From a virus (lineage: Duplodnaviria; Caudoviricetes), in IMG/VR virus record IMGVR_UViG_3300013830_000002, positions 102,779 to 166,778 of that record: 64,000 nucleotides of DNA. One strand, 5' to 3'. The notes beneath the pieces are model-generated. The model was not told the DNA's origin and searched no databases. It saw only the letters and a list, made by a program, of their open reading frames with translations. Shown here piece by piece: positions 4,201 through 61,097 of this stretch (positions are counted from its first letter, which is position 1; each line of letters starts with the position of its first letter). The position numbers and the translations under genes are program-made.

Positions 4201-5620
4201 TCTTTGGTATGTCCTTATGGAAATAATTATTTACTATATCATCATTAATATCAACAGATTTAATCTCCACCATTTCACCAGTACTTGCTTTCGTTTTATA
4301 AGCAAGCTCTCCAGTATCAGATTTTTCAACCTCATCAAGGTTAAACAGGTAGCTAGCCTGCTGACTGTTGTTTATAACAGGAGTCTATTTAAAGTTACCA
4401 GAATCCGCAAGTTTTAAAGTTATTCTCGTAATAGGTCGTAAATTAGAGACATCACTTACACCTGCTTTTGTCCAGTTTATAATTTGGGTCTCAAGATTCT
4501 CAATTCTGCAACCAGTGCCTGTACCATTAAAATTCTCATAACTTCCAGGCTCCTCAATTTTATAGGACCTTGAATAAAGTAGGACTTTATCAGCAGCATA
4601 TTTGCCGTCTGAGTACCCAGATTCATAAGGCAATGCAGTTTTTATCTTATCATAATTATACTTGTAACTCTGTTTTTGCTCATCCCACTCTGGAATACCA
4701 ATAGTGCCTTCCCAAGATGATTCAGTAAAAATAAATCCCATTGGATTTACATTAAGATTATCAGTATCCCAAGATGTGTAAAAATAAACCAAATACTATG
4801 TATCACCACCTTCAGAAGGAGTAAAAGTATAAACATCATACGTGCAGCTAAAACCATTGATAGTTTCAAGTTCAGCAAGAATAGCCAGCTTTCCAGAAAC
4901 TTTTGACTAAAAAACTGAATAAGCAGAAGATAGCATTTTTCTGTAAGAATCAATATCAGGTTTTTCAGTTACAGTTTTTGCTAAATTAGCAATGTAGTAA
5001 TTAGGAGTATTATACCATTTTACAGTAGAATCCAAATCGACTATTTTACCTGAATCCTCAATAGACACTATTTTCAGTTTAAGCATTTTTGGCCACTCAT
5101 TATGAGTATGCTTTTTATTGCCATAGTCTGACAGCTAATTTGCATTACCATCTATGCTTTGGTCCGAATATACAATATATTTATCCCCAGGATTCAGATT
5201 TTTATCACCAAACAGTATTTTTTTAATTGATACTGCTGAAACTACACCAGTTTCAGGATTGGCAAACATGTCTGCTGCTAATCCATTTTCGAGTGATGAG
5301 GTTTCCTCACTTGAAATATTCCTTTCTGGAGAAGGAAAACATCCTATTTGAGATTTGTTTTCCAAAGGATTATAGCTGACTATGTAAATAATGTCACCAT
5401 ACTCACATGAACCAACAGGTATATATCCCTCAGGAAGCATTGCAGCTTCAACACGACCATTACCCATATCCTGCTGAAGCTACATTTCATTACCATTGAA
5501 AGTAAGCAAAGTTGCATTCAATGCATCAGTGAGACAGTCGTTTTTTGCTACCATAGGATTAAAGTCCATTATTAATCCTTTAGTAAAAGTATTAGTTGCT
5601 GCCTAACGAGTTTGTGCCAT
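1214..5620 (-). CDS. Large tail protein (~1468 aa), tail stabilization-like N-terminus; TAG=Gln
   Basis: Five track ORFs (5135..5467, 4385..4792, 3839..4273, 1844..3805, 1214..1588) share one frame separated by TAG; N-term NTFTKGLIMDFNP..NGNE..DMGNGRVE. Confidence 0.7.
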
Positions 5621-5638
5621 CTTAATATCAGTTAATTA

Positions 5639-11864: not shown

Positions 11865-11947
11865 AGAACATTAGTATATTAACAAAAATATAGCAAGGGT
11901 ATATTTCAACCCTTGCCTATATCTAAAAAATAAAGTTTATCTTAAAA

Positions 11948-14900: not shown

Positions 14901-17703
14901 TTAATACTTGTATCTTTAGACCAATAAAAATTTTTGCAGCGATTTTTATAATTAACTGCATTCCTGATAGCAGTATGTGATACACAATAAAAGTCAGCTG
15001 CTTCCTACATAGTATTCCAGGTTTTAATGTACTTACCACCAGTTGTAAATTGGTTTACAGGCAAGTATTTATAACCTGTCATACCACCTAGCTAAGCATT
15101 ATATGTATCCTTCCGTTTAATAAAATTATAATCTACTAATCTTGATTCTTCTTTTAATGCTTCATCTAATGAGTCACATACTTTTAAAGTAATTCTTTTA
15201 AAATTTTTAACCCCATATTTTTTGACTGCATATTGTAAAGGAGATGAAGGATTCATATAACTACTTGGCATATTTACTTTTATTCCACATCCGAGATACT
15301 AATCAAAAACATCTGGATTTTCTGTCTTATGCTATCCAATATAAATTTTTCCATTAACTAAATTTTTTGTCAAATATATTATATATTTCATTATTTAGTA
15401 AATTAGCTTCCATTTCGATTAATCTTTTAATCTACTCTCTCCCGAGATAGTCGTTGAACTTTTCTTGGTACTCCAGTCATAACTTTCAGTATAATCCAAG
15501 ACTTAGCTGCTGATTACCATTTCACAGGTTTCCAGCAATTAAAAAGCTTGTGCTTGTAGCTTAAGCTACAAGGAGCAATGTTAGTTTACTCTGGTACTTA
15601 ACGAACATTTTGTTAATCACTATATTACTATAGTGTTCAGACTATATCTTAATTTATATAAAATAAATTCACTCTTTTTCAGCTATTACAGCTTACTCCG
15701 TAAAGGATAGTCGTTGAACATTCTAAAATAAAAATTTTAGCTTTGCTGCTGATTGTCCTAATTAGTAGCTGACTTAGGATTTCCAGCAATTTAAAGTGTT
15801 TTTATTATTGACTGAGGCAACGTTAAAAGTACCAATAAAATTTTAATATTTTCACCACAGTCATTAAGCTCCGGCTTGGCATTTCCTACCCATCGGGTAA
15901 GACCGCCAATATGGCAAGCATCCACATCAAGAACTGAGCTATAATCATCGTCAACAAGACGGACCATTACAGACCATCTATTGTCAGCTTTTCTTACAGG
16001 CGGGGCCACGACAAAGCATTGCTGGCCGGATTCCTCAATCTTGAAGATTTCATGAAGTTGGTAATAGTTCTCTGGGAATACCATTTCAATTTCAGAACCA
16101 TCTGCACCATTCTCAACAGGAACTTCTGCAAACGGAATTCTCTTGATTTGATTGGTTTCGATTTCCCCAATTTAATTGTTATCAACATGTTACCATGTTG
16201 TTCAGACTATATCATTTACTATACTTAAACACATAACCATTACATTCAGTAATCTAATTGATTACTTTGTTCATTTGTGTATGTGTTAATCCATACTTAA
16301 CCCGGCACTCTTTAAAAGTATTAAATTCTTCAATCAAAGTGCCATTTTTGTCATAAACTTTTAGTGTGACAGGATTCAATTTTCTACTTGGCAATTCAGT
16401 AATTTGTTTTGTACTAATATAGAAATTCTTAAACCAACCGTCATTGTCATGTATGATTTTGTCCAATTTGGCAAACGAGAATACCTTTAGCTGTTTAAAT
16501 ATTTCTTTTCCTACAAATGTTCCGATAAATTTATATGGAATACTGTACAAAAAGAACTGACAGCTTTTTAATTGTACTCTTGGTTTTGGTTTAAATTCGT
16601 CTGTATTAATGTTTGACACATAATGGTTGCATAGTAGTTGTTGGTTTCTGCAGGCATGACTGACTGCTTGTGGAGTACATCCTAAATATTGAGCACACTC
16701 TTTTCTTGTGCCAAATACAGCAACCTGACTACCATCCTTTGTATAAACAAATGTTTTTTGTTTGCGATGGTTAATGTTAAAAATCTGTGGTTGTCTACTC
16801 CAGTAGAATCCAGCGTAAGTAATACCGTCAGTAGAAGCTCTCTGTAACCTTATTAAGTTCAAACCCAGAGAATCAGCTGCCTCAACCGTACTGTTCCACG
16901 TTTTTATTAAATTACCATCGTAGTCAAATTGATTGATTGGTTTGGAATGCCAAGTTCTGTCTTGCTGGCCTTTAAAATATCCACCAAGACCTCCTACAGC
17001 TACATTATATACATGAGCTTGACGAATAAACTATTCAGTCACAATACTCTCTTCAATGGCTGATGCCTCTTCAATAGTATCCACTATTTGAATAGTGTAT
17101 CGAGTGAAAGCATTTGGCCCATACTTTTTAACTGCCTTTTGAAAAGGAGTTGTAGGCTGCATATATGTAGCAGGTTTTTGTGCATAGACTCCACAACCTA
17201 AATACCCGTCAAAAATTTCTGGGTCTTCGGTTTTATGGTAGCCTATATAAATTTTGTTCAGTCCATTCTTTTTGGACTTGTTGTTTACAGTTAAGTATAT
17301 GATATATTTCATAGTAATCCAATTTTTCACCATAAGGTTTAGAACGCATCTTAGTCGTTGAACATTACTCTGAACCAGAGTCGTGCTGCTGATTGTCTTG
17401 TAGTAGCATCAAGAGTTCCCAGCAATTTAAAGGATTTTTCACAGTAGCTTACACTACTGAGGAGCAGGAATTTTACTCATAGAATTCAGAGTCAATTGAA
17501 GTAAAGCTACCAAGCTTTTTCTTCTCCTGACCCATCCAAACATTACCAAGTAAGTCAGTTAATGCACTCAAAGTGTTTTGCGGATAAAGCTTAGCAAGAA
17601 TACCGAGCTTATATGTTTTAGTACCAAGGAACTTACCAAAATCCTCAACGGTACGTGTACCACCCATATTAGGGTTATTAGTTACAAAATTAGCTACTAA
17701 CAT
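11948..17703 (-). CDS. Major capsid protein, 472 aa after splicing; exons 17703-17475, 16167-15854, 15605-15588, 14276-13995, 13731-13450, 12241-11948
   Basis: Exons sum to 1419 nt and join in frame (EFYE-W-EIETNQ; PELNDCG-FVKYQS-NVEKMRN; PIPIG-EGLIPQIERFASKY; AYEFA-GNTIVF); each upstream exon ends in U and each intron in G; one TAG=Gln at 13714-13716. Confidence 0.9.
12242..13449 (-). mobile_element. Group I intron 5 of MCP (with GIY-YIG ORF)
   Basis: Core motifs; P1 TTCGCT/GGCGAA; P10 TATTTCT/GGAAATA. Confidence 0.9.
12276..13202 (-). CDS. Intron-encoded GIY-YIG endonuclease; TAG=Gln
   Basis: YIVYITIN..GKFYIGVH; extends through TAGs to an in-frame TGA inside the intron S element. Confidence 0.8.
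13732..13994 (-). mobile_element. Group I intron 4 of MCP (263 nt, no ORF)
   Basis: Core motifs; P1 ATTGGT/GCCAAT. Confidence 0.9.
14277..15587 (-). mobile_element. Group I intron 3 of MCP (with GIY-YIG ORF)
   Basis: Core motifs; guide AACATTGCTC pairs GAGT of exon 3 and AATGTT of exon 4. Confidence 0.9.
14477..15391 (-). CDS. Intron-encoded GIY-YIG endonuclease; TAG=Gln
   Basis: MKYIIYLTKNLVNGKIYIG(Q)HKTENPDVFD(Q)YLGCG; in frame with ORF 14477..14764. Confidence 0.8.
15606..15853 (-). mobile_element. Group I intron 2 of MCP (248 nt, no ORF)
   Basis: Same four core motifs; U| and G| boundaries. Confidence 0.9.
16168..17474 (-). mobile_element. Group I intron 1 of MCP (with GIY-YIG ORF)
   Basis: Core motifs AATTGCTGGGAA, AATCAGCAG, GTTCAACGACTA, GATATAGTCTGAAC; P1 GAGT/GCTC; terminal G. 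Confidence 0.9.
16212..17312 (-). CDS. Intron-encoded GIY-YIG endonuclease with NUMOD1-like repeats; TAG=Gln
   Basis: MKYIIYLTVN..KIYIGYH..; ORFs 17031..17333 and 16254..16862 join across TAG; ends at TGA 16212. Confidence 0.85.
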
Positions 17704-47310: not shown

Positions 47311-47393
47311 CACTCTGCATAGTCAGTAGTACAGTTACTTCTGAATTGCTAATTTATATAAAATAAACTGTAGTACAACTTACTTGCAGAGTG
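47311..47393 (+). ncRNA. Scaffold ncRNA copy 1 (Y-RNA-like candidate)
   Basis: Outer stem CACTCTGCA/TGCAGAGTG; TAGTCAG..ACAGT-TACTTC..ACTGT. Confidence 0.6.
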
Positions 47394-47410
47394 TTTTCTA
47401 ATAGTAGTTT

Positions 47411-47523
47411 TTGACAATAAACGTGTGTACTCAAATTGTCAGTTACTTCAATAATGTTAGACAAAGTGAAATTCATACGATTAAATAAACTGGCTATTGG
47501 TTTAGTCACATGTTTATTGTCAA
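47411..47523 (+). ncRNA. Scaffold ncRNA copy 2
   Basis: 17-bp outer stem; CAGTTACTTC..AACTG. Confidence 0.55.
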
Positions 47524-47528
47524 TACCA

Positions 47529-47600
47529 GAGCAGGATTCCTGACGGTGAAGGTGCCAGTCTGCAAAACTGGATTTGTGAGTTCGACTCTCACCCTGTTCT
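47529..47600 (+). tRNA. tRNA-Cys(GCA)
   Basis: CCAGT-CTGCAAA-ACTGG; T arm GTGAG-TTCGACT-CTCAC. Confidence 0.8.
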
Positions 47601-47673
47601 CGAATGATTGATTTGAGAATAGTGAGCAAAGGTTTTCATGCTGTCTTTTCTATGTATTGCCAATAAAGACAGC

Positions 47674-47745
47674 CTCAGCTTGGAATAACGATAGTTCATG
47701 CACCTTTACAAGTGCAAGGTTATGGTTTGACTCCATAGGCTGAGT
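47674..47745 (+). tRNA. tRNA-like gene with 8-nt anticodon loop CUUUACAA
   Basis: Acceptor CTCAGCT/GGCTGAG; D stem GAAT/GTTC; anticodon stem TGCAC/GTGCA; T stem TATGG/CCATA. Confidence 0.65.
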
Positions 47746-47773
47746 TTTTTTGAAGATTTTTTTACCATAAGAT

Positions 47774-48307
47774 ATGGCATATAATACAAAAGTAAGTCTG
47801 AAGGTTGCTCTTCCAGGAAGAGTTCCGTTCAGCAAGCAGGAGTGCTTCGAAAACTCCATCATTGATTTCACAGGCAAGGAGCCTGCAGTTGTAGACCACA
47901 AGCCACTTGGTGAGCCCTTTGGCAGAGAGTACTTCGACAAGAAGGGAAACCTTCGTAAAGGTCTTGCTATCAGGGAAACTCCGATTCCTGGCATGACTGA
48001 CAAGCATTCAGTCCTCAAGGAGTACTTTGACAAGAAACTCCAGAAGAAAGTAACCAAAAAGGTAGTGTTTTTTACCCGCAAGTACCAGCCTGCATATCAG
48101 GTCATCCGCATCAGTCAGGAAGCATACGATGCCTTCATTGACAACGATGCCTGCCCTGTCTGGTACAGACCTGAAGGCCTGACTGTCAAGCAGACCACTG
48201 CCAGTTGGAAGCTGCTTTCTGACACTGAAAAGCTGGAAATTAATCTTCAGCGTCTTGCAGAAGGGCTTGGAGGTACTCTTGACAGCTACGAGATTCTGCC
48301 TGATTAA
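47774..48307 (+). CDS. Hypothetical protein (177 aa)
   Basis: Intact TAG-free ORF. Confidence 0.7.
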   Translation: MAYNTKVSLKVALPGRVPFSKQECFENSIIDFTGKEPAVVDHKPLGEPFGREYFDKKGNLRKGLAIRETPIPGMTDKHSVLKEYFDKKLQKKVTKKVVFFTRKYQPAYQVIRISQEAYDAFIDNDACPVWYRPEGLTVKQTTASWKLLSDTEKLEINLQRLAEGLGGTLDSYEILPD

Positions 48308-48476
48308 TTCTATCGTCCTAAGGACTTCATTATCTTGGATTGCAAGTAAGGTAATTTGATTGTTTTTAGGATGACTTTCAAAGGTCATTCTGATTGGATT
48401 AACATCCTTCAGGATGACCTTATTTTTTCCATGAACAAACAACTCGTTTAATTAAACAGATTAATACTCAGAAAAG

Positions 48477-48863
48477 ATGACTACAATTTTTCATTTTGAT
48501 GATTCTACAGCACCACTTCATCATGGTGCAGTGGTTACAGGAAGGCCAGACCTTTTCTATGTAACGAAAGAGCTTGGAAGGACACTCCCTGATGACATGC
48601 TTAGGGCAGCATTTGCCAGTGAGAAAATCAATGGCATGTGTGTGGTGAACAGAAACCAGACGATACATTATCTCCTACAGAAAGGGCATATTTTCACTAA
48701 ATCATCACAGGCCAAGTTCTCCGGCAATGTGTTTGAACTCACTGTAGAGAGTATTTCTGTTGAGCAGATAAAATATCTGATAGCATTAGGTCTGAAGGAC
48801 TTTAAAATCCTGCCAGACAATGACCACAGGATAAAGATAATAATAAATCTTGTAAACCTATAG
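48477..48863 (+). CDS. Hypothetical protein (128 aa if TAG is stop)
   Basis: ORF ending at TAG; true end uncertain. Confidence 0.55.
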   Translation: MTTIFHFDDSTAPLHHGAVVTGRPDLFYVTKELGRTLPDDMLRAAFASEKINGMCVVNRNQTIHYLLQKGHIFTKSSQAKFSGNVFELTVESISVEQIKYLIALGLKDFKILPDNDHRIKIIINLVNL

Positions 48864-49111
48864 GTGCTTATGGTGAACAATAGCAGCCATTTCTATAAAA
48901 AATATCAATGGAGAGTCATCGAAAGGTAGAAAGCACTATTAATAATACATAATTAAAAGTAACATAAAAGATGAAAAAGTTATCAGAAGTAAAGCTTCCT
49001 CAGGAAGTTATGGATGAGATTGCTAACAAGGTAAATTATACATCAGGCAATATCCTTCCTCCTGAATGCTACTACTACTAGAAAGTAAAAACTCCTAAAA
49101 GCAATAAAGCA

Positions 49112-49669
49112 ATGAACGAACAGGAATTAAGTAATTACATTATGGGCAATCATGTCAGAATTGATGAAAAGATTGCCCATATTGCACAGAAAAATTCAGG
49201 CAGGAAAGGAATGACTCCATTCACTCTTGCCTGTTATGTATGGCAGGCACTTCAGAACTTCAAGACAATGAGTGCTGAAAGTGTAATACTTACTGCAGTG
49301 AACAACTGGGATTCCCTGACCTGGAAAAATACAAATATTCCAATAGGTCTGTGGAATAGATTATTCAATGACTATCCTCTCAGTCCCGACAACTGGAGAC
49401 AGATAGCCTGCCCTCTGATGTTTGTTGAAGATATTGTGACATCAGTTACTGTTCCGAATAGAACAAAGCTCTGTCACTTTGCCTATATATCAACATCTTC
49501 TACACAGAAATATCCGCTTATCTGCACAGATACTGCCTACAGGAAAATAATATCAGGCAATGCATCAAAGCTCACTACATATATATATGGTGAAGCAGCA
49601 GGTAAACAGGATGCTCCTTATGAGCTTCTGAGACATGAAGCCATACGAATAGTTATGCCAATCCGATAA
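49112..49669 (+). CDS. Hypothetical protein (185 aa)
   Basis: Intact TAG-free ORF. Confidence 0.65.
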   Translation: MNEQELSNYIMGNHVRIDEKIAHIAQKNSGRKGMTPFTLACYVWQALQNFKTMSAESVILTAVNNWDSLTWKNTNIPIGLWNRLFNDYPLSPDNWRQIACPLMFVEDIVTSVTVPNRTKLCHFAYISTSSTQKYPLICTDTAYRKIISGNASKLTTYIYGEAAGKQDAPYELLRHEAIRIVMPIR

Positions 49670-49901
49670 AGAAATAAATAAATGGATAGTCAGATGAAAT
49701 ACAGATTGTGCGACACTACTGGTCATACAGTCAGATGCTTCCACACTTGGGTTGAAGCAAACAACTTCAGGATTCTGATGGGAAGATTTGACTGGACTAT
49801 ACAGTCAAGGATTGCCAATTTTGGACCAAGATATTGATTCTATAACGGTTTTAAACTGTTTAAGCAAAAAAATCATACCAATTTTTAAACTTTTTCACTC
49901 G

Positions 49902-49938
49902 AAAACCTTGGGTTTTTCTGTAGAATAAGTTATTATTG
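49902..49938 (+). promoter_or_regulatory. Promoter motif at the head of the tRNA array
   Basis: AAAACCTTGG-N19-TATTATTG about 60 nt before tRNA-Thr. Confidence 0.7.
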
Positions 49939-49999
49939 ACTATGTATTTGATGCAAAGATACTGCAGTTACAGTTATCAATAATGTTTCTGTAGTATTT

Positions 50000-50077
50000 G
50001 CCTCCTTAGCTCAGTTGGTTAGAGTACGTGATTTGTAATCTCGGGGGTTGTCAGTTCGAGTCTGATAGGAGGCTCCA
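50000..50077 (+). tRNA. tRNA-Thr(TGT)
   Basis: Cloverleaf with encoded CCA. Confidence 0.85.
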
Positions 50078-50082
50078 TGACA

Positions 50083-50184
50083 ATCAGGAAGTCAGTGTTT
50101 CAGTTACTTCACATTATAATGAAAATAATCCGCAGAAAATGATTCTGCAACCAGCATCAATACTGAACACAATTTTCTTCTGAT
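50083..50184 (+). ncRNA. Scaffold ncRNA copy 3
   Basis: ATCAGGAAG/CTTCTGAT stem; AGTCAG..TCAGT-TACTTC..ACTGA. Confidence 0.6.
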
Positions 50185-50257
50185 TTTACTGACTGTAGTA
50201 GCCTCTCCCAGTTAATCGATGCTGGTGATGCTCTGCAGTATTTTGACAATTTTAACA

Positions 50258-50395
50258 GGAAGAAAGTAGTCAGGCAAGTACAGTTACTTCGATTTTTTAG
50301 CTCATTGGATAGAATGTTAGTTTTGGGTACTAAAGGTAGCAAGTTCAAGTCTTGCAAGAATCAACATTACACTGTCAGCCGTTTTCTCTTTCTTT
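50258..50395 (+). ncRNA. Scaffold ncRNA copy 4 enclosing tRNA-Pro(TGG)-like cloverleaf (50291..50363)
   Basis: Scaffold motifs flank GATTTTT..TTAGT-TTTGGGT-ACTAA..GCAAG-TTCAAGT-CTTGC-AAGAATC. Confidence 0.7.
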
Positions 50396-50401
50396 TTGCT
50401 T

Positions 50402-50485
50402 GGGGATGTAAACCGTAATTGGTAGCGGGCGAAACTGTAAATTTCGTTTCTTCGGAATCTGTAGGTTCAAGTCCTACCAGCCCCA
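50402..50485 (+). tRNA. tRNA-Tyr(GTA)
   Basis: CGAAA-CTGTAAA-TTTCG; long variable arm. Confidence 0.85.
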
Positions 50486-50503
50486 CAAAAAACTTAAATG
50501 TTT

Positions 50504-50586
50504 CCAGTAGTCAGATATATCAGTTACTTCAAAATTTTATACATTGAAAATTATCTGAATCCAATACTGATTATCTTTTTCTCTGG
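50504..50586 (+). ncRNA. Scaffold ncRNA copy 5
   Basis: CCAG-TAGTCAG..ATCAGT-TACTTC..ACTGAT..TTTCT-CTGG. Confidence 0.65.
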
Positions 50587-50596
50587 TTTTTATTTT

Positions 50597-50671
50597 GGGC
50601 CAGTAGCTCAGCAGGCTAGAGCACCTGCCTTGCAAGCAGAAGGTTGTGGGTTCGAGACCCACCTGTGTCCA
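50597..50671 (+). tRNA. tRNA-Ala(TGC)
   Basis: Cloverleaf; loop CTTGCAA. Confidence 0.8.
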
Positions 50672-50727
50672 CTGTGGACAAAGGCGTATTATTTAAGTAT
50701 GTGGTCTGTGAAGATAGCATACTTTTT

Positions 50728-50801
50728 ATTCCCTTAGCTCAGTTGGTTAGAGCATTTGGCTTACATCCAAAAGATTGGCAGTTCAAATCTGTCAGGGAAT
50801 A
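50728..50801 (+). tRNA. tRNA-Val(TAC)
   Basis: TTTGG-CTTACAT-CCAAA. Confidence 0.85.
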
Positions 50802-50821
50802 CATACTTTTATTGAAAATAT

Positions 50822-50892
50822 GGTAGGCAGAGTGTGATGGTAGCATGTCATCCTGTCACGATGAAGGAGGGGTTCGATTCCCATGCTTACTG
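50822..50892 (+). tRNA. tRNA-Asp(GTC)
   Basis: TCATC-CTGTCAC-GATGA. Confidence 0.75.
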
Positions 50893-50902
50893 CAAAATAA
50901 AT

Positions 50903-50976
50903 CGTGGGTTAGACTGGAGGTGGTTCCAGCATGGTTTCATAAGCCATTGACACAGGTTCGACTCCTGTACCCGCAA
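50903..50976 (+). tRNA. tRNA-Met(CAT), C1:A72 initiator-like
   Basis: ATGGT-TTCATAA-GCCAT. Confidence 0.8.
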
Positions 50977-50982
50977 CAAATA

Positions 50983-51123
50983 AAATATTTGAGTAGTCAG
51001 ACTTATCAGTTACTTCGTAGCTTAAAGGTTAAGCAATTAACTTATAATTAATGTATTGTTGGTTCGATTCCAACCGACCACTCTTGTGGATTTTACTGAT
51101 TGTCAATTTCTCTCAAATATTTT
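50983..51123 (+). ncRNA. Scaffold ncRNA copy 6 enclosing tRNA-like D/anticodon(TAT)/T arms
   Basis: Outer stem AATATTTGAG/CTCAAATATT; cargo GCTT/AAGC, ATTAA-CTTATAA-TTAAT, GTTGG-TTCGATT-CCAAC; acceptor stem truncated. Confidence 0.7.
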
Positions 51124-51124
51124 T

Positions 51125-51195
51125 GGGTTCGTAGCTGGAAGGTCAAGCAATAGACTGTTAATCTATGGATGTAGGTTCGATTCCTACCGTTCCCG
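51125..51195 (+). tRNA. tRNA-Asn(GTT)
   Basis: ATAGA-CTGTTAA-TCTAT. Confidence 0.8.
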
Positions 51196-51250
51196 CTTAA
51201 TTCCCATCAGTCCCTGAAGTAATTCAAACTGGTGGGTATTGTATTAAAAT

Positions 51251-51388
51251 AATAAAGTGTAGTCAAGAAAACAGTTACTTCGATTCTGTTGTACAATAGG
51301 TTAGTACGATTTACTATGGGTAAATAAGTTACTGGTTCGAACCCAGTCAAAATCTTTTGATACTGTTTGCTAACTTTCTCACTTTATT
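51251..51388 (+). ncRNA. Scaffold ncRNA copy 7 enclosing tRNA-like cloverleaf with ATG anticodon (51282..51355)
   Basis: Outer stem AATAAAGTG/CACTTTATT; cargo ATTTA-CTATGGG-TAAAT, ACTGG-TTCGAAC-CCAGT. Confidence 0.7.
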
Positions 51389-51389
51389 T

Positions 51390-51460
51390 GGCCGTGTAGT
51401 TTAAAAGTAGAACATCAGATTTTCAGCCTGAGGACCTTGGAGCGTTACCAAGCTCGGCTA
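51390..51460 (+). tRNA. tRNA-Glu(TTC), atypical T loop
   Basis: TCAGA-TTTTCAG-CCTGA; T arm CTTGG-AGCGTTA-CCAAG. Confidence 0.65.
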
Positions 51461-51487
51461 CCTTTTAAAAGAAAAAAAAATAATAAA

Positions 51488-52201
51488 ATGAATGAGTTAA
51501 AAAATTATTACTAGAATTTAGTTAATACTTCTTAGTCTTTTTCTGAAATTTTAAGAAAACAGCATAAAGCAGTTTCAGGAGCATCTATCAAGCTATTAAA
51601 AATCACTTTAGATTCTTTAAATATTAACTATAGTCATATAAAATATAGACAGCCTGTAAGAAATAGGCGCCCATTATCCTAGATTTTAGTTGAAAATAGT
51701 GTATATAGTTCCAGAGACCTTAAAACACGCCTAATAGAGGCAGGTTTAAAAGTAAATAGATGTGAAATATGTGGCCAATCTCCAATATGAAATAATAAAA
51801 AGTTAACTTTACAACTTGACCATATTAATGGGAATCATTTTGATAATAGACTTCATAATTTAAGGATTGTTTGTCCGAATTGTCACAGCTAGTTAGAAAC
51901 TTAGGGAACTCATAGATTTAAAGTAATTAAAAGATGTCCAGATTGTGGAAAAATTATTACTAGTAAATCCACGTACTGCAGACAGTGTGCAGCTACACAT
52001 AGAAGAGGCAAAAAGTGGAGAAGCATTGTATCAAAATAGGAACTTCTTTAGTTAGTACTTACTTTGCCCTTTACAAAGATAGCTAAAAAATTCAATATTA
52101 CTGATAATGCAGTAAGAAAATATTGTAGAAAATTAGGAATTCCTTCTACTAAAACTGAATTATTCAAATATCGAAATAAGATGCAGTAGATAGCCACTTA
52201 A
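51488..52201 (+). pseudogene. Free-standing HNH endonuclease; TAG=Gln; in-frame TGA at 51788
   Basis: CEICG..*NNKKLTLQLDHINGNHFDNRLHNLRIVCPNCHS(Q); C-terminal Zn finger and HTH. Confidence 0.75.
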
Positions 52202-52239
52202 TAATAGATAAAAGTTTTTTGTTTTAAATTTGTATTTTT

Positions 52240-52581
52240 ATGAATGCAAAGAAGTTGTTTATAGGCTTTGTAACCCTGATTGTGGTTATTGTTCTGTGTG
52301 GTGCAATATTCGGCTGGGGCAAGCCTATGACTGAGGCATCAAGTAAGGATGTGGCTGCTGTGACAGCAGTTCTGCAGGACAGTGATTCACTGACTATTGA
52401 CAGTGTGAGGTTCTCACCACTGGAAGTAATTAATGATTCTGCTGGCAATTACTTTGATGTACAGACAGTCAAGTACAACACCATTTCCGATTCAGATACA
52501 ACTGCACATGTTGCTACTGTATATGTTGCAAGAAAATGGTGGAAATACCAACCTACTGGGAAAGTAAAGATTCTCAAGTAA
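52240..52581 (+). CDS. Membrane-anchored hypothetical protein (113 aa)
   Basis: N-terminal TM helix. Confidence 0.65.
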   Translation: MNAKKLFIGFVTLIVVIVLCGAIFGWGKPMTEASSKDVAAVTAVLQDSDSLTIDSVRFSPLEVINDSAGNYFDVQTVKYNTISDSDTTAHVATVYVARKWWKYQPTGKVKILK

Positions 52582-52633
52582 CGAATAACAACTTCTGAAG
52601 GAAAAGCATCAGTTCTTTCAGAAGTTTTTTAAT

Positions 52634-53344
52634 GCCCTTTTAGCTCTAGTAGAAATATTATTAGTATTATGATAAGTAAATGGGAAAAAGAAAAGAAAGC
52701 TTTAGAGTATAAAATTTTCACAGAAAAACTTTCTTATGAAGAAATAGGAAAATAGTATGGATGCTCTGGAAGTAATATAAAAAAGTAGCTAAAAAATTAG
52801 GAATTTAGTTAAAACCCAGGAGAAAAATTAGTAAATAGGAAATTAAAAAAATTTAGTTAAGAGCCGCTTCTTCACATATTGAACATATAAAATATAGTAA
52901 TTGTTTAAATTGTGGCAAAAAATTTGAGGTAATGCATTCTTGCCGAGGAAAGTTTTGCTGTAATAAATGTGCTTAGGAGTATAAATATAAACACAGCATA
53001 TTATTATGGAAATAGGGAAAGAAATCTGGAACTAATGGCTTTAACTGTGCTACTTATGTAAGAAGATACCTGTTTGAAAAATATCACAATAAATGCTAGA
53101 TATGTGGTTGGGGAAAAATTAATAAATATACTGGAAAAATTCCTCTTCAAGTGCATCATATAGACGGAAATTGTTTAAATAATAAAGAGAATAATCTTAT
53201 GTTATTATGTCCCAACTGTCACTCTCTTACAGAAAATTTTGGAAGTAGAAATAAAAATGGTTTGCACCTGAGAAGTATTTACTATGGAAGAGCTAAAGTA
53301 AAGCAGTAAACTCTAGGTCACAGGTTCGAGTCCTGTAAGGGGTA
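52634..53344 (+). tRNA. Interrupted/degenerate tRNA gene (identity unknown) with HNH ORF inside
   Basis: 5' GCCCTTT-TA-GCTC pairs with distal AAGGGGT-A after an intact T arm at ~53320. Confidence 0.6.
52669..53309 (+). CDS. HNH endonuclease; TAG=Gln; needs a -1 shift at A-AAA-AAG (~52779)
   Basis: HTH start, CLNCG..FCCNKC, C(Q)ICGW..LQVHHIDGNCLNNKENNLMLLCPNCHSLT. Confidence 0.7.
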
Positions 53345-53353
53345 CAATTTTTT

Positions 53354-53444
53354 GGAGGAATAACCCTAATCGTGTAAGGGAACAGTCCTGAAAACTGTCA
53401 GTAGCCAGTAAAATGGTGTGTGGGTTCGAATCCCACTTCCTCCA
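53354..53444 (+). tRNA. tRNA-Ser(TGA)
   Basis: ACAGT-CCTGAAA-ACTGT; long variable arm. Confidence 0.8.
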
Positions 53445-53583
53445 CTGCAAACAAATAACATTATTAATAAAAAATAATTAAATTTACGGACACAAAAGAT
53501 GCTGCATCTTATCTTGCCCACCTTCTGAAAGATGCTCAGAAACTGTCTGAGAAGTTGCAATAAATTAGATAAACTTTTAATGT

Positions 53584-53657
53584 TGGAGTGTAGCGCAGCG
53601 GTCTAACGCAATAGACTTTGACTCTATGAATCGCAGGTTCGAATCCTGTCACTCCGA
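53584..53657 (+). tRNA. tRNA-Gln(TTG)
   Basis: ATAGA-CTTTGAC-TCTAT. Confidence 0.85.
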
Positions 53658-53729
53658 CAAATTAAAAAATATGGTTTACCCTACCATAGTAAAGAAGTCA
53701 AAAAGTTACTTGGTATACAATAACTAAAT

Positions 53730-53810
53730 TGGTCGGTATGCAAGTGGTCAAAGCAGGCAGTCTCCAAAACTGCTCCGAAAGGTTCACAGGTTCGAATCCT
53801 GTCCGGTCTG
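53730..53810 (+). tRNA. tRNA-Trp(CCA) with long variable arm
   Basis: GCAGT-CTCCAAA-ACTGC; variable arm TCCGAAAGGTTC. Confidence 0.75.
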
Positions 53811-53870
53811 CAAAAATGTATAATGAAATATGCTTAGATTTGTTTAATTTAATTAATACTCATTTGCTCT

Positions 53871-55496
53871 ATGAAAATGAAAGAAAGAAATCAGCAGCTA
53901 AAGGCTGCTATCGGAAGAATTCCTGACAAGAAAGTCACAAAGGAAGTAATGCACATGCCTAAGTATGATGCAAAGAACCTGCAAGGCTTTGATGCCTATG
54001 CAGTGCCTGAAAAGTTACATCTGCTTGCAATGCTCAACACACTTAAGCTTGAGCCTCAGTTCTATCGTTCTGTGAGTGAAACAATGAAGGAGATCAAGGC
54101 ACTGATTGACAAGATTGCCGAGAAGGATGCTTACTTTGTTGCACAGGCAATTGTCTGGTCAAGATGCTGTGGTGAGGGTATGCGTTCAATTAACTATCTT
54201 GCTGCTGCTTTTCTTGCACCTTGGTGTGCTGGTGAAGAGTGGGCAAAAAGATTCTATGGCCCGTTCAACAAGAAGACAAAGAATTCTGGTGGTGTCATTT
54301 ACAGACTTGATGATATGTCAGAAATCAAGGATGTTTTTGATGCTCTTAACAACTCTGTATTGACAAATGCAATGAAAAAAGGCTTCAGGAATGTCATTGA
54401 ACATGCTTCAGCCTATGAGCTTTGCAAGTACAGAAAGACTGCAATTGACATCACTAATCTGGTTCATCCAAACACTGCTGTTTGTGCAAAACTCAAGGAT
54501 GGCACGAATGTAATCGATACCCTGATGAAGGGCAAGATTATTTCTGCTGATACTTGGGAGAATGCAAACTCTGATGCTGGTCAGGTAGTTGCTGATGCTG
54601 TCAAGAAAGGAAAACTTTCCGAGGAGAAAGCAAAGGAAGTTCTGAAGGAAGCAAAGAATGACAACTGGAAGTCCTTACTTAAGGAAGGAAAGCTTGGAAT
54701 TCTTGCTGCTGTGAGAAACTTGAGAAACATTCTCTTAGGTGATGACACTGAAACAGTTAAACTTGTTTCAAACCTTGTTAGTGACGGAAAGAGAATCAAG
54801 CAAGGAAAGATTATGCCATATCAACTTGAGTTTGCTCATACTGCTGTCACAGAGCTGACAGAAGTATCACAGAGCCTTAAAGCTCCTGTGATGAAAGCAC
54901 TCGAAAAAGGTATGATTGAAGCCCTTCCTAATCTTGCTGAACAGTTGCCAGGAAGAAACCTTGTTGCATTTGATATTTCTGGCTCAATGAGCTGGGGTGA
55001 ATGTTACCAAGGAAAGAGCAGAATTTCTGCCAATCCTATTGACAAGGCAGCTATCCTTGCAGCTATGCTTGCAAAAGGTACAAATGCTGATATTATCAGA
55101 TTCAATAGTAGGTCTGAATTCTTCTCATACAGTGCCAATGAAGACTTGTTCAGCCTTGCAACAAGACTGAAGCAGAATATTGGTGGTGGAACATCCATTT
55201 CTTCTGTGTTTGATTTGATTACAAGTAAGCATAAGAAGTATGACAGAATCTTCATTATTTCAGACGATGAAGCTAATCAGGGCTGTACAAGATATGCTTA
55301 CAGTAATTACATACAAAATGTTTACTCTCCTTATATTTATGCAGTTGACCTTGCTGCCTATGGCACAATGCCTGTAAGAAATGATGGAAAAGTGAACTAC
55401 TATTTCGGATATGGATATTCAATGCTTGATGATGTTGCAAGCAAGGAATTCAATCCGAATGCTGTAATAGATAAGGTGAAGGCTATCAAGATTTAA
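53871..55496 (+). CDS. rsr: Ro60/TROVE-domain RNA-binding protein with C-terminal vWA domain (541 aa)
   Basis: N..G..AY, GMRSI, LCKYR, VHP, TWE, LAAVRNLRNIL, MPYQ, MIDAS DISGSMS, GGGT, IISD, DLAAYG pattern. Confidence 0.88.
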   Translation: MKMKERNQQLKAAIGRIPDKKVTKEVMHMPKYDAKNLQGFDAYAVPEKLHLLAMLNTLKLEPQFYRSVSETMKEIKALIDKIAEKDAYFVAQAIVWSRCCGEGMRSINYLAAAFLAPWCAGEEWAKRFYGPFNKKTKNSGGVIYRLDDMSEIKDVFDALNNSVLTNAMKKGFRNVIEHASAYELCKYRKTAIDITNLVHPNTAVCAKLKDGTNVIDTLMKGKIISADTWENANSDAGQVVADAVKKGKLSEEKAKEVLKEAKNDNWKSLLKEGKLGILAAVRNLRNILLGDDTETVKLVSNLVSDGKRIKQGKIMPYQLEFAHTAVTELTEVSQSLKAPVMKALEKGMIEALPNLAEQLPGRNLVAFDISGSMSWGECYQGKSRISANPIDKAAILAAMLAKGTNADIIRFNSRSEFFSYSANEDLFSLATRLKQNIGGGTSISSVFDLITSKHKKYDRIFIISDDEANQGCTRYAYSNYIQNVYSPYIYAVDLAAYGTMPVRNDGKVNYYFGYGYSMLDDVASKEFNPNAVIDKVKAIKI

Positions 55497-55561
55497 TCTT
55501 TGAAAGATTCACTATGGTACTCAAGATGTAATCTATGAACTAGATTGTTCAAAAGTACCAT

Positions 55562-55636
55562 TGGGGCGTAGCAGAATGGTACATGCTGGAGTCTCTAAAA
55601 CTCTGTAATATGTGGGTTCGAGTCCCATGGCCCCAT
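55562..55636 (+). tRNA. Amber suppressor tRNA (CTA), probably Gln
   Basis: GGAGT-CTCTAAA-ACTCT; U1:A72 acceptor as in tRNA-Gln. Confidence 0.88.
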
Positions 55637-55650
55637 CTAACTTAAATTTA

Positions 55651-56667
55651 ATGAATATGACAAAAGACGAAATATATAATGCTCCTAAATATGCTGGCAT
55701 TTATTGTTTCAGAAATAAAATGAATGGTAAATGTTATATAGGCCAGTCTATTAAGCTAAGAAAAAGATTGCTGCATCATATTAATAATTTGGAAAATAAT
55801 AGATATGATGCTCCTATATATAGGGCTTTTAAAAAATATGGATTAGAGAATTTTGAATTAATAATTCTTAAAACATATAGAGATGCTTTATCAAAAGAAG
55901 TTAAGGATAAACTCGATGAAGATGAAAAATTCTATATAAAAGAATATAACTCCTATGCTCCAAATGGCTACAACCAAACACTTGGAGGAGATGGAGGAGT
56001 ACTTGGGTACAAATTTACTCCTGAGCAAATAGCTAAACAGAAAATAATTACACATGCTTTAAGTGGGCAAAATAAAGCAAGCTGGATATATGCTTATGAT
56101 ATAGAAACTAAAACTACTTATATGGCAATTACTGCTGTTTATTTAAGTCAAAGATTAAATATACCAGTATCTGTTTTACATTCTGCTTGTAGAAGCTCAT
56201 ATATAGTATGCTATAATAAGTATGTTATAGGACATAGTGAGGAAGAAATTAAGAAAAAATTAAAACTGCTTGAATAGAGAAAGTCCAAACTAAATACTGA
56301 TTATACAGGAGACCATAATAATCTAAAAGGAGTTTCTAATCTTATTTTTTATAAAAACTATTATGAATTTCTCTGTTCTTTACCAAAGGGGACTACTCTA
56401 AAGCAAATTGCAAAACTTTGTGGAGTATCTAAGCCTACAGTAGATAAAAGAAACCAGAAACTTAGGAAATTAGGATATTAGCTTCCATGTATAGCTTCTC
56501 ATAAGCCTATACAGAATATAAAAGTAACTAATATTGAAACTCAAGAAGTTATTATTATGGGTATTTCGCAATTTGCTAAAAACTTCAATTTAAAAATAAG
56601 TTCTGCAAGAAAGCAAGTGCAACATACTAATTTATATAAAAAGAAATACAAAATAGAAAGAATATAA
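55651..56667 (+). CDS. Free-standing GIY-YIG endonuclease (Seg-like); TAG=Gln
   Basis: GIY..CYIGQS..KYGLENF..GYNQTLGG; reads through TAG to an HTH and TAA 56667. Confidence 0.85.
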
Positions 56668-56787
56668 ATTTAAATGTATTACATAAAAAACTTAATAACA
56701 TGTTTCATAATATTTGTATTATGTTCATGCAATAATATAAGTATACATATTTTTAATTACTAATAACAACTCAAATTACAATAACTT

Positions 56788-57024
56788 ATGCACAGACAGA
56801 GATTTAAGCAATCAAGAATTGCTTCATCTGACCACTATGAGTGGTCTTTGAGATACCATAGAAAGTATCTCAGACGTGAACATGAAAAGAATTCATTAAT
56901 CATTCAAACTCTTGAAGTTCATGTAAGGAAGATGCCCTATGTAGGAGTTTTTGGTAAGTTAATACCACTGACTCTCAACCAAGCTAAGAAACTCTCAGAA
57001 ACTATAGAAATAATCTGGCAATAG
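56788..57024 (+). CDS. Hypothetical protein (78 aa)
   Basis: Ends at TAG followed by a hairpin. Confidence 0.5.
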   Translation: MHRQRFKQSRIASSDHYEWSLRYHRKYLRREHEKNSLIIQTLEVHVRKMPYVGVFGKLIPLTLNQAKKLSETIEIIWQ

Positions 57025-57065
57025 AATTATATTAAAAATAAGCCAGTTTAAATGACTGGCTTTAT

Positions 57066-57138
57066 GCTCCCTTAGCTCAATGGATAGAGTAACAGATTTC
57101 TAATCTGTAAGTTGTAGGTTCGAATCCTACAGGGAGTA
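57066..57138 (+). tRNA. tRNA-Arg(TCT)
   Basis: ACAGA-TTTCTAA-TCTGT. Confidence 0.9.
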
Positions 57139-57145
57139 CAAATTT

Positions 57146-57274
57146 GGGGCAGAAGTTTAACGGAAATTATACTCTGATGAGAGTCCTTTGTATTATGCAA
57201 TAGTCATCATATAGAGTTACTTCAAACATTTATCTATCACATAAAAGAAAGTTGGTTAGACTCTAGCCTGCCCC
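57146..57274 (+). ncRNA. Scaffold ncRNA copy 8 (divergent)
   Basis: GGGGCAG/CTGCCCC; TAGTCA..TAGAGT-TACTTC..ACTCTA. Confidence 0.5.
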
Positions 57275-57276
57275 GT

Positions 57277-57368
57277 AAAAAGCAATAGTCAGCTACAGAC
57301 TTACTTCTATATTGTGCCATAAATTACGATAATAAAATATAAAGTCTGTGCAATATACTTTGCTTTTA
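57277..57368 (+). ncRNA. Scaffold ncRNA copy 9
   Basis: AAAAGCAA/TTGCTTTT; TAGTCAG..ACAGACT-TACTTC..AGTCTGT. Confidence 0.6.
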
Positions 57369-58322: not shown

Positions 58323-58397
58323 GTGTAGGTAGCTTAGTTGGTCTAAAGCATCGGGTTGTGGTTCCGATTATCATGGGTTCGAATCCCATCCTACACC
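58323..58397 (+). tRNA. tRNA-His(GTG)
   Basis: TCGGG-TTGTGGT-TCCGA; C73. Confidence 0.85.
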
Positions 58398-58420
58398 CTA
58401 ATTAAATTTAAATAAAAAGT

Positions 58421-60023: not shown

Positions 60024-61097
60024 ATGAAGAAATTTTTGACAATTCTCTTTGCCCTTATGCTGGGCATTGTTGGTGTTCAGGCACAGACAGCTTATGAGGC
60101 ACCGAAGTTCTTTGACAACACCTATGTAGGTGTTCAGGTAGGAGCAAACACTCCTCTCTCATTTAACCAGGTTTTCCCACTTAACACTACAGCAAGTGTA
60201 CGTGTAGGAAAGGATTTCACTCCTGTGCTTGGATTGAATGTCGAAGGTGGTGTGTGGTTTGGCTCTCATTCAAACGGCCATACGGCTGGCTATGTAAATC
60301 ACTTTTCCTACAAGGGGTTTGTGAATGCAGTAACTGTCGGTCTGAATGGAACAGTGAACTGGTCAAACCTGATTAGTGGATACAAAGGACAGCCTCGTTT
60401 GTTTGAAGTAAGTACAATCACCGGTCTTGGATGGCTTCATGAATACAGCTCTGTAACACCTGACGATGATGACGAGCTTTACGCAAAGACTGGTTTTGAC
60501 CTAGCATTCAATTTAGGCAGTCAAAAAGCATGGCAGCTTTATATTGAGCCAGCAGTTATCTGGAACCTGACAAATGGCAAGGAGGGAGAAACCCTTGGAA
60601 GTCAGATTGATGCAGTACATTTCAACAAGAGCCATGCCTATCTGCAACTTGCCATTGGAGTGAATTACAAGTTCAGGACCTCCAATGACACACACAACTT
60701 CAAAGTATGGGACATTGCTGCTCTTAACAATGAAATCAATAATCTCAGAGCTAAGCTTGCAGAGAAGCCTGCAGAGGTTGTAAAGACTGTTGAGACTGTA
60801 AAAACAGTTCCTGTTGCATCAGGAAATTATGTTGTTTATTTCACTAAAGGCTCTTCAGAACTTTCTGATATTTCAAAGAGTGTCTTGAATGAAATTCCTA
60901 CTGGTTCTTCAGTAAAGATTACTGGTGCTGCAGATGAAGTTGGCTCTGCCAGTTTCAACCAGGCACTTTCACTCAGACGTGCAGAAGCTGTTGCAAAATA
61001 TCTTTCTGACAGAAACGTAACTGTTGATGGAATTGAAGGCATTGGTGAGACAGGAAACCCTGTTGCACGTGTAGCAATAGTCACTGTAAACAAGTAA
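60024..61097 (+). CDS. OmpA-family outer membrane protein (357 aa)
   Basis: Signal peptide, beta-barrel ending GVNYKF, coiled linker, VYFTKGSS..GAAD..NQALSLRRAEAV peptidoglycan-binding domain. Confidence 0.9.
   Translation: MKKFLTILFALMLGIVGVQAQTAYEAPKFFDNTYVGVQVGANTPLSFNQVFPLNTTASVRVGKDFTPVLGLNVEGGVWFGSHSNGHTAGYVNHFSYKGFVNAVTVGLNGTVNWSNLISGYKGQPRLFEVSTITGLGWLHEYSSVTPDDDDELYAKTGFDLAFNLGSQKAWQLYIEPAVIWNLTNGKEGETLGSQIDAVHFNKSHAYLQLAIGVNYKFRTSNDTHNFKVWDIAALNNEINNLRAKLAEKPAEVVKTVETVKTVPVASGNYVVYFTKGSSELSDISKSVLNEIPTGSSVKITGAADEVGSASFNQALSLRRAEAVAKYLSDRNVTVDGIEGIGETGNPVARVAIVTVNK

Follow-up and report, generated by a model that had tools for sequence, protein, structure and literature searches.

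The window analysed in this work, a stretch of 64 000 nucleotides (nt) that forms the final 64 kb of a complete 166.8-kb uncultivated virus record (IMG/VR IMGVR_UViG_3300013830_000002; Duplodnaviria, Caudoviricetes), carries nine structured RNA elements within an array of tRNA genes, and all nine lie within 6.6 kb of an open reading frame (ORF) for a TROVE protein. The nine elements are probably phage-encoded Y RNAs (we put the probability at about three in four), the paired ends of which are predicted to form a handle for the phage Ro60/TROVE ring protein. This reading is supported by covariation, by linkage to TROVE on the same strand, by independence from tRNA arrays, by continuity with known Y RNAs and by the presence of a genuine Ro60 homologue. 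An initial annotation, made from the window sequence alone, had proposed an expanded, modular Y-RNA-like repertoire beside the TROVE gene, for which the linkage to TROVE and the variable cargo now provide comparative support. The checks that it suggested, namely a covariance model, a comparison with the Rfam Y_RNA and YrlA families and a scan for co-occurrence with TROVE, were carried out here; covariation was strong and linkage was found in 59 of 69 TROVE-bearing loci. Ro60, which is a major autoantigen, and its Y RNAs have been conserved all the way from bacteria to humans, and the roles of the system in bacteria and viruses are poorly understood. To our knowledge, only a few types of Y RNA have been defined.

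The elements share a common fold which, read from the 5′ end, starts with the outer stem (P1) and a single bulged U, continues through a 2-bp AG:CU helix and an internal loop that is asymmetric, and then has an inner stem (P2), the motif UACUUC and the cargo. The flanks were paired in the fold of each of the nine elements. The initial annotation had described paired ends, a (U)AGUCA(G) motif, an inner helix, UACUUC and a 3′ pyrimidine tract; the UACUUC, the inner stem and the paired ends stood, and the remaining parts could be refined. The U preceding AGUCA is a one-nucleotide bulge, the AG of AGUCA pairs with the CU that ends the ‘pyrimidine tract’, and the internal loop consists of UCA on the 5′ side versus 5–6 nt preceding the CU (consensus AAYWUU). 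P2 has about 9 bp, with 10–12 nt on its 5′ side, and the 3′ strand as far as the CU spans 15–16 nt. AGUCA is a lineage-specific form of the family-wide consensus U-(A/G)G-(U/C)(A/G/C)A. Conserved across the family are the 3′ strand AAYWUU-CU and UACUUC, the latter being the sole near-invariant motif, and in each of the nine copies, as in nearly all of 150 aligned relatives, the inner stem is followed by UUAC (within U-UACUUC). The features by which Y RNAs are recognized in the broad sense are all present: the 5′ and 3′ ends pair into a terminal stem, a conserved helix contains a bulge, and the apical module varies.

The motif CAGTTACTTC occurred seven times exactly, always on the + strand, between positions 47332 and 51281. 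When one mismatch was allowed there were 16 matches compared with 5.0 ± 2.6 expected, a number that was reached by none of 100 shuffles. The longer pattern AGTCA-N(4–16)-TTACTTC was found eight times in the forward and never in the reverse orientation across the 166.8-kb genome, and all eight occurrences were within the window.

Since the 3′ halves could not be aligned across the variable cargo by MAFFT, the covariance model was seeded from a single sequence with a hand-written structure, an element from another phage (locus L139), followed by a search of TROVE-bearing loci and iterated rebuilding. The first-round model is referred to as R1 and the rebuilt model, which holds 45 sequences of which only one comes from the window, as R2. 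True copies could not be told from chance motif matches by duplex energy alone, and a loose helix descriptor was passed by 10 % of random positions; both were dropped in favour of the covariance model.

In an alignment of 87 sequences (A6), 94.9 % of cells were paired compared with 66.7 % after shuffling, both-sided compensatory changes were found at 17 of 17 pairs, and the covariation score was 0.729 compared with 0.200 for shuffled sequences and 0.08–0.16 when the partners were slid by one to three columns. The values for an alignment of 150 sequences (A8) were similar (94.9 versus 64.9 % of cells paired; both-sided changes at 16 of 17 pairs; covariation score 0.768 versus 0.205 shuffled), and the slid-partner scores across the two alignments were 0.08–0.17. 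These pair counts come from alignments fitted to the model, which favours pairing; the structure is nevertheless secure, because of the slid controls and because the stem sequences are unrelated. The first pair of the 2-bp helix was A:U in 119 and G:C in 21 sequences of A8 and was unpaired in none, and AG:CU was replaced by GG:CC in 21 of 140 sequences. The proposal that the outer stems differ in sequence yet pair, and that the inner helix covaries, is thereby borne out.

Bit scores of the window copies were obtained with R2 with filters off (Table 1). Eight of the nine elements were recovered at full length, the best other match in the window scored 16.7 bits, and a search of the remainder of the 166.8-kb genome gave no further copy. 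Eight of the nine elements proposed to share one architecture are therefore solid; the ninth (copy 8, at 57146) is partial and aberrant. Copy 8 retains AGUCA, the UAGAGU/ACUCUA stem and UACUUC, and is without the 3′ internal loop and the CU; about 47 additional nt separate its outer stem from AGUCA. This insertion (57153–57200) forms a hairpin of its own, ACUCUGAUGAGAGU, and includes a CUGAUGA string reminiscent of the hammerhead core; no ribozyme family in Rfam matched the hairpin, and a hammerhead or other ribozyme reading of AGUCA/CUGAUGA was rejected, as Rfam gave it no support. The 5′ motif of copy 2 is ACUCA, with AC:GU replacing AG:CU, which is a double compensatory change.

The cargos of copies 1, 2, 3, 5, 8 and 9 are not tRNA-like. 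Those of copies 4, 6 and 7 have the standard order of D arm, anticodon arm and T arm, encode no CCA and have both ends embedded in the scaffold (Rfam tRNA threshold 29 bits); the other copies have no T arm. The cloverleaf of copy 4, which begins immediately past UACUUC, was called as tRNA-Pro by ARAGORN and scored 52 bits with the Rfam tRNA model (model positions 1–71). The acceptor stem has 7 bp in copies 4 and 7, with one mismatch in copy 7. There is none in copy 6, where UACUUCG stands in place of the acceptor 5′ strand and a stem of only about 3 bp would be possible; its module scored 50.3 bits with the Rfam tRNA model over model positions 5–66 only and was not called by ARAGORN.

Table 1. 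Positions in the window of the nine RNA elements and the TROVE gene (R2 and R1, family covariance models)
Feature	Position	Strand	Description	Evidence
Copy 1	47314-47390	+	25-nt A/U-rich short cargo; outer stem extendable to about 47311-47393	R2 48.2 bits, full length; fold
Copy 2	47422-47512	+	39-nt cargo; long outer stem reaching 47411-47524	R2 26.5 bits, E = 0.011; RNAfold z = -4.3
Copy 3	50083-50184	+	51-nt non-tRNA cargo with small hairpin; begins 6 nt past tRNA-Thr	R2 42.6 bits; fold
Copy 4	50261-50393	+	Encloses complete standard-order cloverleaf, anticodon UGG, 50291-50363	R2 37.1 bits
Copy 5	50502-50588	+	35-nt cargo; short outer stem CCAG/CUGG plus AG:CU	R2 43.4 bits; RNAfold
Copy 6	50988-51117	+	Encloses tRNA-like module 51015-51077 with D, anticodon and T arms	R2 41.1 bits
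Copy 7	51254-51385	+	Encloses standard-order cloverleaf, anticodon AUG, 51282-51355; a normal tRNA-His(GUG) is free at 58323-58398	R2 47.0 bits; ARAGORN; Rfam tRNA 50.2 bits
Copy 8	57146-57274	+	Aberrant/degenerate; outer stem GGGGCAG/CUGCCCC	R2 partial, 57212-57265, 18.5 bits, model positions 17-64
Copy 9	57280-57365	+	35-nt cargo; inner stem ACAGACU/AGUCUGU; top family-model match	R2 51.1 bits; R1 33.8 bits; RNAfold z = -3.6
TROVE gene	53871-55496	+	TROVE and Ro60-type vWA protein, Ro60/Rsr homologue, 541 aa	Pfam, PHROG, profile, Foldseek

Both Pfam domains of the 541-aa protein scored above their cut-offs (TROVE 31.3 bits, cut-off 23; vWA_Ro60 28.0 bits, cut-off 27.7), corresponding to the TROVE HEAT-repeat ring and the C-terminal vWA/MIDAS domain, and the ORF matched PHROG 850 at 6e-38. 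A profile search of the PDB with the clade of this protein returned solely Ro60/Rsr structures (E-values 1e-12 to 2e-9), namely those of Thermus phage phiLo (9KOP/9L5Y), Xenopus (1YVP), Deinococcus (2NVO) and human (9NEN), of which phiLo Ro60 was the best match. The AlphaFold (AF2) model was moderate (predicted local distance difference test score, pLDDT, 68), and its 12 best PDB matches by Foldseek were all Ro60/Rsr, at TM-scores of only 0.3–0.46. The protein is a divergent but genuine Ro60 homologue and the presumed binding partner of the nine RNAs.

A homologue search revealed thousands of relatives of this protein. In IMG/VR, a search for close relatives with the single 541-aa sequence gave no match and a profile, built from 14 of its relatives, was needed; this fetched 79 phage loci with TROVE proteins 29–56 % identical to that of the window. 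When 69 of these TROVE-bearing loci (1.15 Mb, both strands, E ≤ 0.01) were searched with R2, 211 matches were found, all 211 on the strand of TROVE, and 59 of the 69 loci contained at least one match. The 87 matches of R1 were likewise all on the TROVE strand. Many of the matches formed tandem arrays beginning within a few hundred bases of TROVE, either upstream or downstream. In 100 control viral loci (876 kb) there were three R2 matches, all in one contig that itself carries TROVE (the same record as locus L189). Twenty whole TROVE-phage records (4.6 Mb) gave 78 matches in 19 records, with matches in all 14 of the whole records that were at least 90 % complete, and by our own coordinate comparison 74 of the 78 matches were no more than about 13 kb from TROVE and most were within 3 kb.

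A sequence-pattern scan of the whole collection gave 117 stretches, and TROVE was present in 21 of the 50 records tested. Six larger pattern-matching records without TROVE (G026, 100 % complete; G033, 88 %; G045, 76 %; G064, 66 %; G046, 55 %; G048, 43 %) were rescanned with R2 and no match was found, so that their pattern matches are attributed to chance. Three TROVE-less records did contain R2 matches; these are fragments of 15–26 % completeness, and in two of them the matches lie toward the contig end. In the complete records with matches G022 and G053, TROVE is directly adjacent. The initial annotation had held that a motif equally common in relatives without TROVE would more likely be a processing signal; in this sample it was not equally common there, and near-complete TROVE-less records had no R2 match. 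An earlier scan of IMG/VR with the window motif TAGTCA-N-AGTTACTTC gave essentially chance matches, one of them a coding repeat (L042), and was uninformative because the motif is too short and too lineage-specific.

The scaffold is also found outside these phage loci. R2 matches lie directly upstream of TROVE in bacterial assemblies, comprising the isolates Neolewinella aurantiaca (three tandem copies) and Lewinella sp. W8 as well as metagenome-assembled genomes (MAGs) of Chitinophagales and Saprospiraceae, and in the 635-kb phage LR745206. In all four of the loci scanned for tRNA genes (N. aurantiaca, Lewinella sp. W8, an uncultured Lewinella MAG and LR745206), none was found within 5–10 kb of TROVE. 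The scaffold is not a by-product of tRNA arrays.

Element lengths across the family were bimodal. Of 149 distinct copies, 56 had a short cargo without a tRNA-like module and 93 had a long cargo. The short cargo usually comprised a small hairpin, in many cases capped by a UUGG loop, and an A-rich linker 3′ of it. A T-arm-like hairpin was present in 85 of the 93 long cargos, and 37 of the 93 were called as tRNAs by ARAGORN, with many anticodons including UCA and UUA. The T arm came late, as in the standard tRNA order, in 43 of 83 T-arm cargos, which took two forms: either a full cloverleaf right past UACUUC, or a module in which UACUUCN takes the place of the acceptor strand on the 5′ side, with partial pairing to a GAAG on the 3′ side. 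In a further 36 of the 83 the T arm came early and was followed by a closed stem-loop and the D arm, the permuted-like order that defines YrlA.

Some of these cargos are annotated as tRNA genes in GenBank. The tRNA-Tyr and tRNA-Lys of csAssE-Sib (OR575929.1, L346; 7618–7690 and 7763–7836) and the tRNA-Gln of the crAss-like phage cr111_1 (MT774387.1, L347; 6956–7031) are inside scaffolds just upstream of a Ro60-like gene, and may be mimics rather than decoding tRNAs. In locus L138, a scaffolded 72-nt ‘tRNA-Leu(UAA)’ (11908–11979) has no long variable arm, whereas a free 88-nt tRNA-Leu(UAA) of that array (13878–13965) has one; the scaffolded form cannot be an ordinary class II tRNA-Leu, because this arm is absent.

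The closest known counterparts of the elements are the YrlA RNAs of bacteria and phages. Like these, the elements are same-strand neighbours of a Ro60/TROVE gene and are often multi-copy, have paired ends arranged as stem, asymmetric internal loop and stem with a conserved 5′-strand motif at the stem/loop boundary, and can carry a tRNA-like apical domain with T- and D-arm signatures. The Rfam YrlA consensus has a 6-bp stem, an asymmetric internal loop and a 7-bp stem, followed by CUA. The inner stem of YrlA is followed by a conserved YUAY (Chen et al., 2014, PMC4201824), the UA of which forms a kink (Wang et al., 2018, bioRxiv 10.1101/312249), and UUAC stands at this place here. YrlA differs in that its acceptor loop is closed and it has no anticodon loop, whereas the tRNA-like cargos of the window are standard cloverleaves attached via the acceptor end; the permuted domain of YrlA (variable loop, T arm, closed acceptor-like stem-loop and D arm, without anticodon loop) is not present in the window copies. 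Copy number also differs, at eight or nine in the window phage compared with one or two for YrlA.

The two types meet in cultured phages. In Xanthomonas phage Tenjo and also in Caulobacter phage CcrColossus, the latter of which has been reported to encode YrlA (PMC4201824, PMC12135203), R2 detected tandem + strand copies in the intergenic DNA that precedes TROVE, with weak to moderate scores (17.5–26.5 bits, with a further CcrColossus copy at 14.6 bits). The 5′ motif of these copies is GUGGCGUAG or GUGGUGAAG, and UACUUC is kept. The 5′ strand reads GGCGUAG or GGUGAAG, one mismatch from the published GNCGAAN0-1G, and this near match suggests homology with YrlA, although the literal motif is not attained. 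By our reading, at least one copy in each phage carries cargo in the YrlA order of T arm, closed stem-loop and D arm (Tenjo 3727–3862, CcrColossus 5508–5631). In CcrColossus (JX100810.1, L349), about eight tandem elements lie upstream of TROVE between 4438 and 5631, where five weak R2 matches are interleaved with three sub-threshold Rfam YrlA matches (42.3, 30.5 and 29.9 bits) and an annotated tRNA-Gln, so that the array mixes both flavours.

Similarities to other Y RNAs were also apparent. In Deinococcus radiodurans, source of the first bacterial Y RNAs, Yrn2, tRNA-Asp and Yrn1 are part of one polycistronic precursor (PMC4201824), and this co-transcription with a tRNA parallels the interleaving with tRNA genes in the window. 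As in copies 4, 6 and 7, the Ro-binding stem of the D. radiodurans Yrn RNAs is at the acceptor end of a partial tRNA-like domain with an anticodon-like arm (PMC4201824); Yrn1, compared here by description since Rfam has no Yrn1 model, differs from the full cloverleaves of the phage in its ‘anticodon’ loop of 6 nt and in lacking a full D arm. Thermus phage phiLo also encodes a Ro60, with the Y-like RNAs Yrl1 and Yrl2 directly upstream of it (PMC12135203), and both RNA binding and a ternary complex with PNPase have been shown experimentally for this protein (PMC12135203; PDB 9KOP, 9L5Y). It differs in that there are two RNAs, which were chosen by a CGAA motif in a large internal bulge, and tRNA-like or modular cargo has not been reported for them. 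Phages that encode Ro60 with adjacent tRNA-mimicking Y RNAs were already known (PMC4201824, PMC12135203, PMC7824862). In the searchable literature, no description was found of the present consensus, of arrays of up to nine copies or of standard-order tRNAs caged via the acceptor end, although a prior listing in the supplement of Chen et al. (2014) is possible. We read the family as a branch of the YrlA/Y RNA superfamily that is divergent and modular and occurs in multiple copies.

The metazoan Y RNAs (RF00019) resemble the scaffold in the 5′-strand layout of a helix, a single bulged pyrimidine, two purine-led pairs and an internal loop (GGUC[C]GA in vertebrates compared with GAG[U]AG-UCA here). 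Further resemblances are that the 3′ strand of the loop is rich in pyrimidines and that the apical loop is modular.

The handle would consist of the outer stem, the bulged U, the 2-bp AG:CU helix, the asymmetric loop, the one-turn inner stem and the UUAC(UUC) junction, and the apical cargo would be an exchangeable effector module. In the window this cargo takes the form of a short A-rich stretch bearing a small hairpin, or of an entire tRNA-shaped domain; in relatives it can also be a permuted YrlA domain. By analogy with characterized Ro60–Y RNA particles, the handle would dock the RNA onto the outer face of the ring, and the cargo would tether or gate the ring toward factors that recognize tRNA shape or single-stranded RNA, candidates for which are PNPase, other exonucleases, tRNA-processing enzymes and host tRNA-targeting nucleases. 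Scaffold copies are interleaved with the tRNA genes of the window at a spacing of 5–25 nt, and for this reason are probably cut out of polycistronic transcripts of the tRNA array. Binding by TROVE, processing from array transcripts and an effector role for the cargo are what we infer.

It is conceivable, if on balance doubtful, that Ro60/TROVE in large phages is more specifically a tRNA-centred machine, with the Y handle as a portable cage on the acceptor end of tRNAs of chosen anticodon, the relatives including suppressor-like anticodons. The ring might then gate release by RNase P/Z, or might show locked decoys to host anticodon nucleases. Were this true, the pool of viral tRNAs would be regulated or protected in a new way, and Ro60 function would be tied directly to the supply of tRNAs.

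Several points weigh against the Y-RNA reading, besides the model-fitted alignments mentioned above. No match to Rfam YrlA (RF02553) or Y_RNA (RF00019) overlapped any element, even at E ≤ 10; the sole YrlA match in the window (26.4 bits, gathering threshold 69 bits) was at 50618–50788 and spanned two ordinary tRNAs. None of the window copies contains the literal YrlA motif GNCGAAN0-1G; they read (U)AGUCA(G) or ACUCA. The statement in the initial annotation that the consensus is unlike known Y RNAs thus agrees with Rfam, but the family grades into YrlA in CcrColossus and Tenjo; as the matches in these two phages are weak, the bridge is one of architecture more than of score. A role in repair is without local support, because the phage genome has neither RtcB nor a clear RNA ligase. 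Finally, the three cargos that score like ordinary tRNAs could be mere tRNA precursors with unusually structured flanks.

This last point can be extended to the whole family, the scaffolds being read as structured leader-trailer duplexes of tRNA precursors, in which case they would be part of tRNA arrays and would not go with TROVE. Such duplexes would signal processing or protection, with RNase III and RNase E as examples, or would hold back RNase P/Z by caging, and the short-cargo copies would be decayed tRNA genes. The position of the window copies inside a tRNA array fits this, as do the three cloverleaves of 50–52 bits that begin right past UACUUC, at the would-be cut site of RNase P, the encoded CCA and GenBank tRNA annotation of some cargos in relatives, and the short cargos, which often begin with GUA and a UUGG-loop hairpin reminiscent of U8-A9 plus the D arm. 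However, the scaffold is absent from most array tRNAs (in the window from about 27 of 30, and in the relatives L138 and L176 from at least 24 of 26). It adjoins TROVE where no tRNA is nearby and is missing from the other viral DNA searched (876 kb), no tRNA could arise from the many cargos that are permuted domains of the YrlA type, and some scaffolded ‘tRNAs’ duplicate free tRNAs or, like the 72-nt ‘Leu(UAA)’ of L138, are of the wrong class. We consider a precursor origin unlikely.

Still less probable is a role as decoys or sensors, in which the elements, as TROVE-bound, caged tRNA look-alikes, would face the tRNA-targeting defence nucleases of the host, each copy showing a different anticodon arm while its locked ends bar it from translation. 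The anticodon-loop cargos are diverse (including UCA, UUA, UGG, UUU, UUG and GCA), several share an anticodon with a free tRNA of their own array, the Y stem closes off the ends, and the literature connects Ro60/TROVE and a tRNA-like partner with damaged tRNAs and with systems for RNA repair (PMC7824862, PMC7790460). Such a role is, however, purely inferential: in the window genome no nuclease-inhibitor or repair gene linked to the array was found, and more than one-third of copies have no anticodon arm. An RNA-repair context was considered and rejected, as neither RtcB nor a T4-type Rnl1 was found in the phage genome, where the only ligase-like match was sub-threshold.

Intrinsic terminators, attenuators or repeated mobile DNA without an RNA–protein role would account for tandem repeats and for stems followed by U-rich sequence in AT-rich DNA, but are scarcely credible given that stem sequences are wholly different with pairing kept, that the loops and UACUUC are conserved across TROVE proteins that are about 30 % identical, that the strand bias is 211:0, and that conserved internal loops and tRNA-like cargo would remain unexplained.

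If the elements are Y RNAs, R2 provides a calibrated model for a large branch of these RNAs that Rfam does not recognize, with more than 200 copies in bacteria of the Saprospiraceae and in phages from gut, rumen, soil and aquatic sources, crAss-like phages among them. A single conserved handle would be reused with interchangeable cargo in arrays of up to nine, and some annotated phage ‘tRNA genes’ would be caged inside Y RNA stems, which affects genome annotation because such mimics inflate phage tRNA counts. Cultured carriers exist in the Tenjo-group Xanthomonas phages and in Caulobacter phage CcrColossus.

The array in which the elements lie is found between 47.3 and 61.5 kb of the window, and its tRNA genes, about 30 in number, are without exception on the + strand (ARAGORN, Rfam). 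Shortly 3′ of copies 1 and 2, ARAGORN called a tRNA with a four-base anticodon (47674–47745; UUAC, 8-nt loop). A tRNA detected by Rfam (43.2 bits) and not by ARAGORN is located at 51390–51460, beginning 5 nt past copy 7. Directly 3′ of the TROVE gene there is an amber-suppressor-type tRNA (55562–55637; anticodon CUA), which overlaps the start of an ORF for a GIY-YIG nuclease (55612–56277). Long ORFs are scarce under translation table 11, and a ligase-like match elsewhere in the genome contains an in-frame TAG; together with the CUA tRNA, these features suggest TAG recoding. Within the tRNA array there is also a 357-aa ORF with an OmpA-family domain (60024–61097). Three group I introns on the − strand (13745–14083, 15371–15597 and 15618–15837; 66, 58 and 71 bits, all above the Rfam gathering score) are clustered in about 2 kb.

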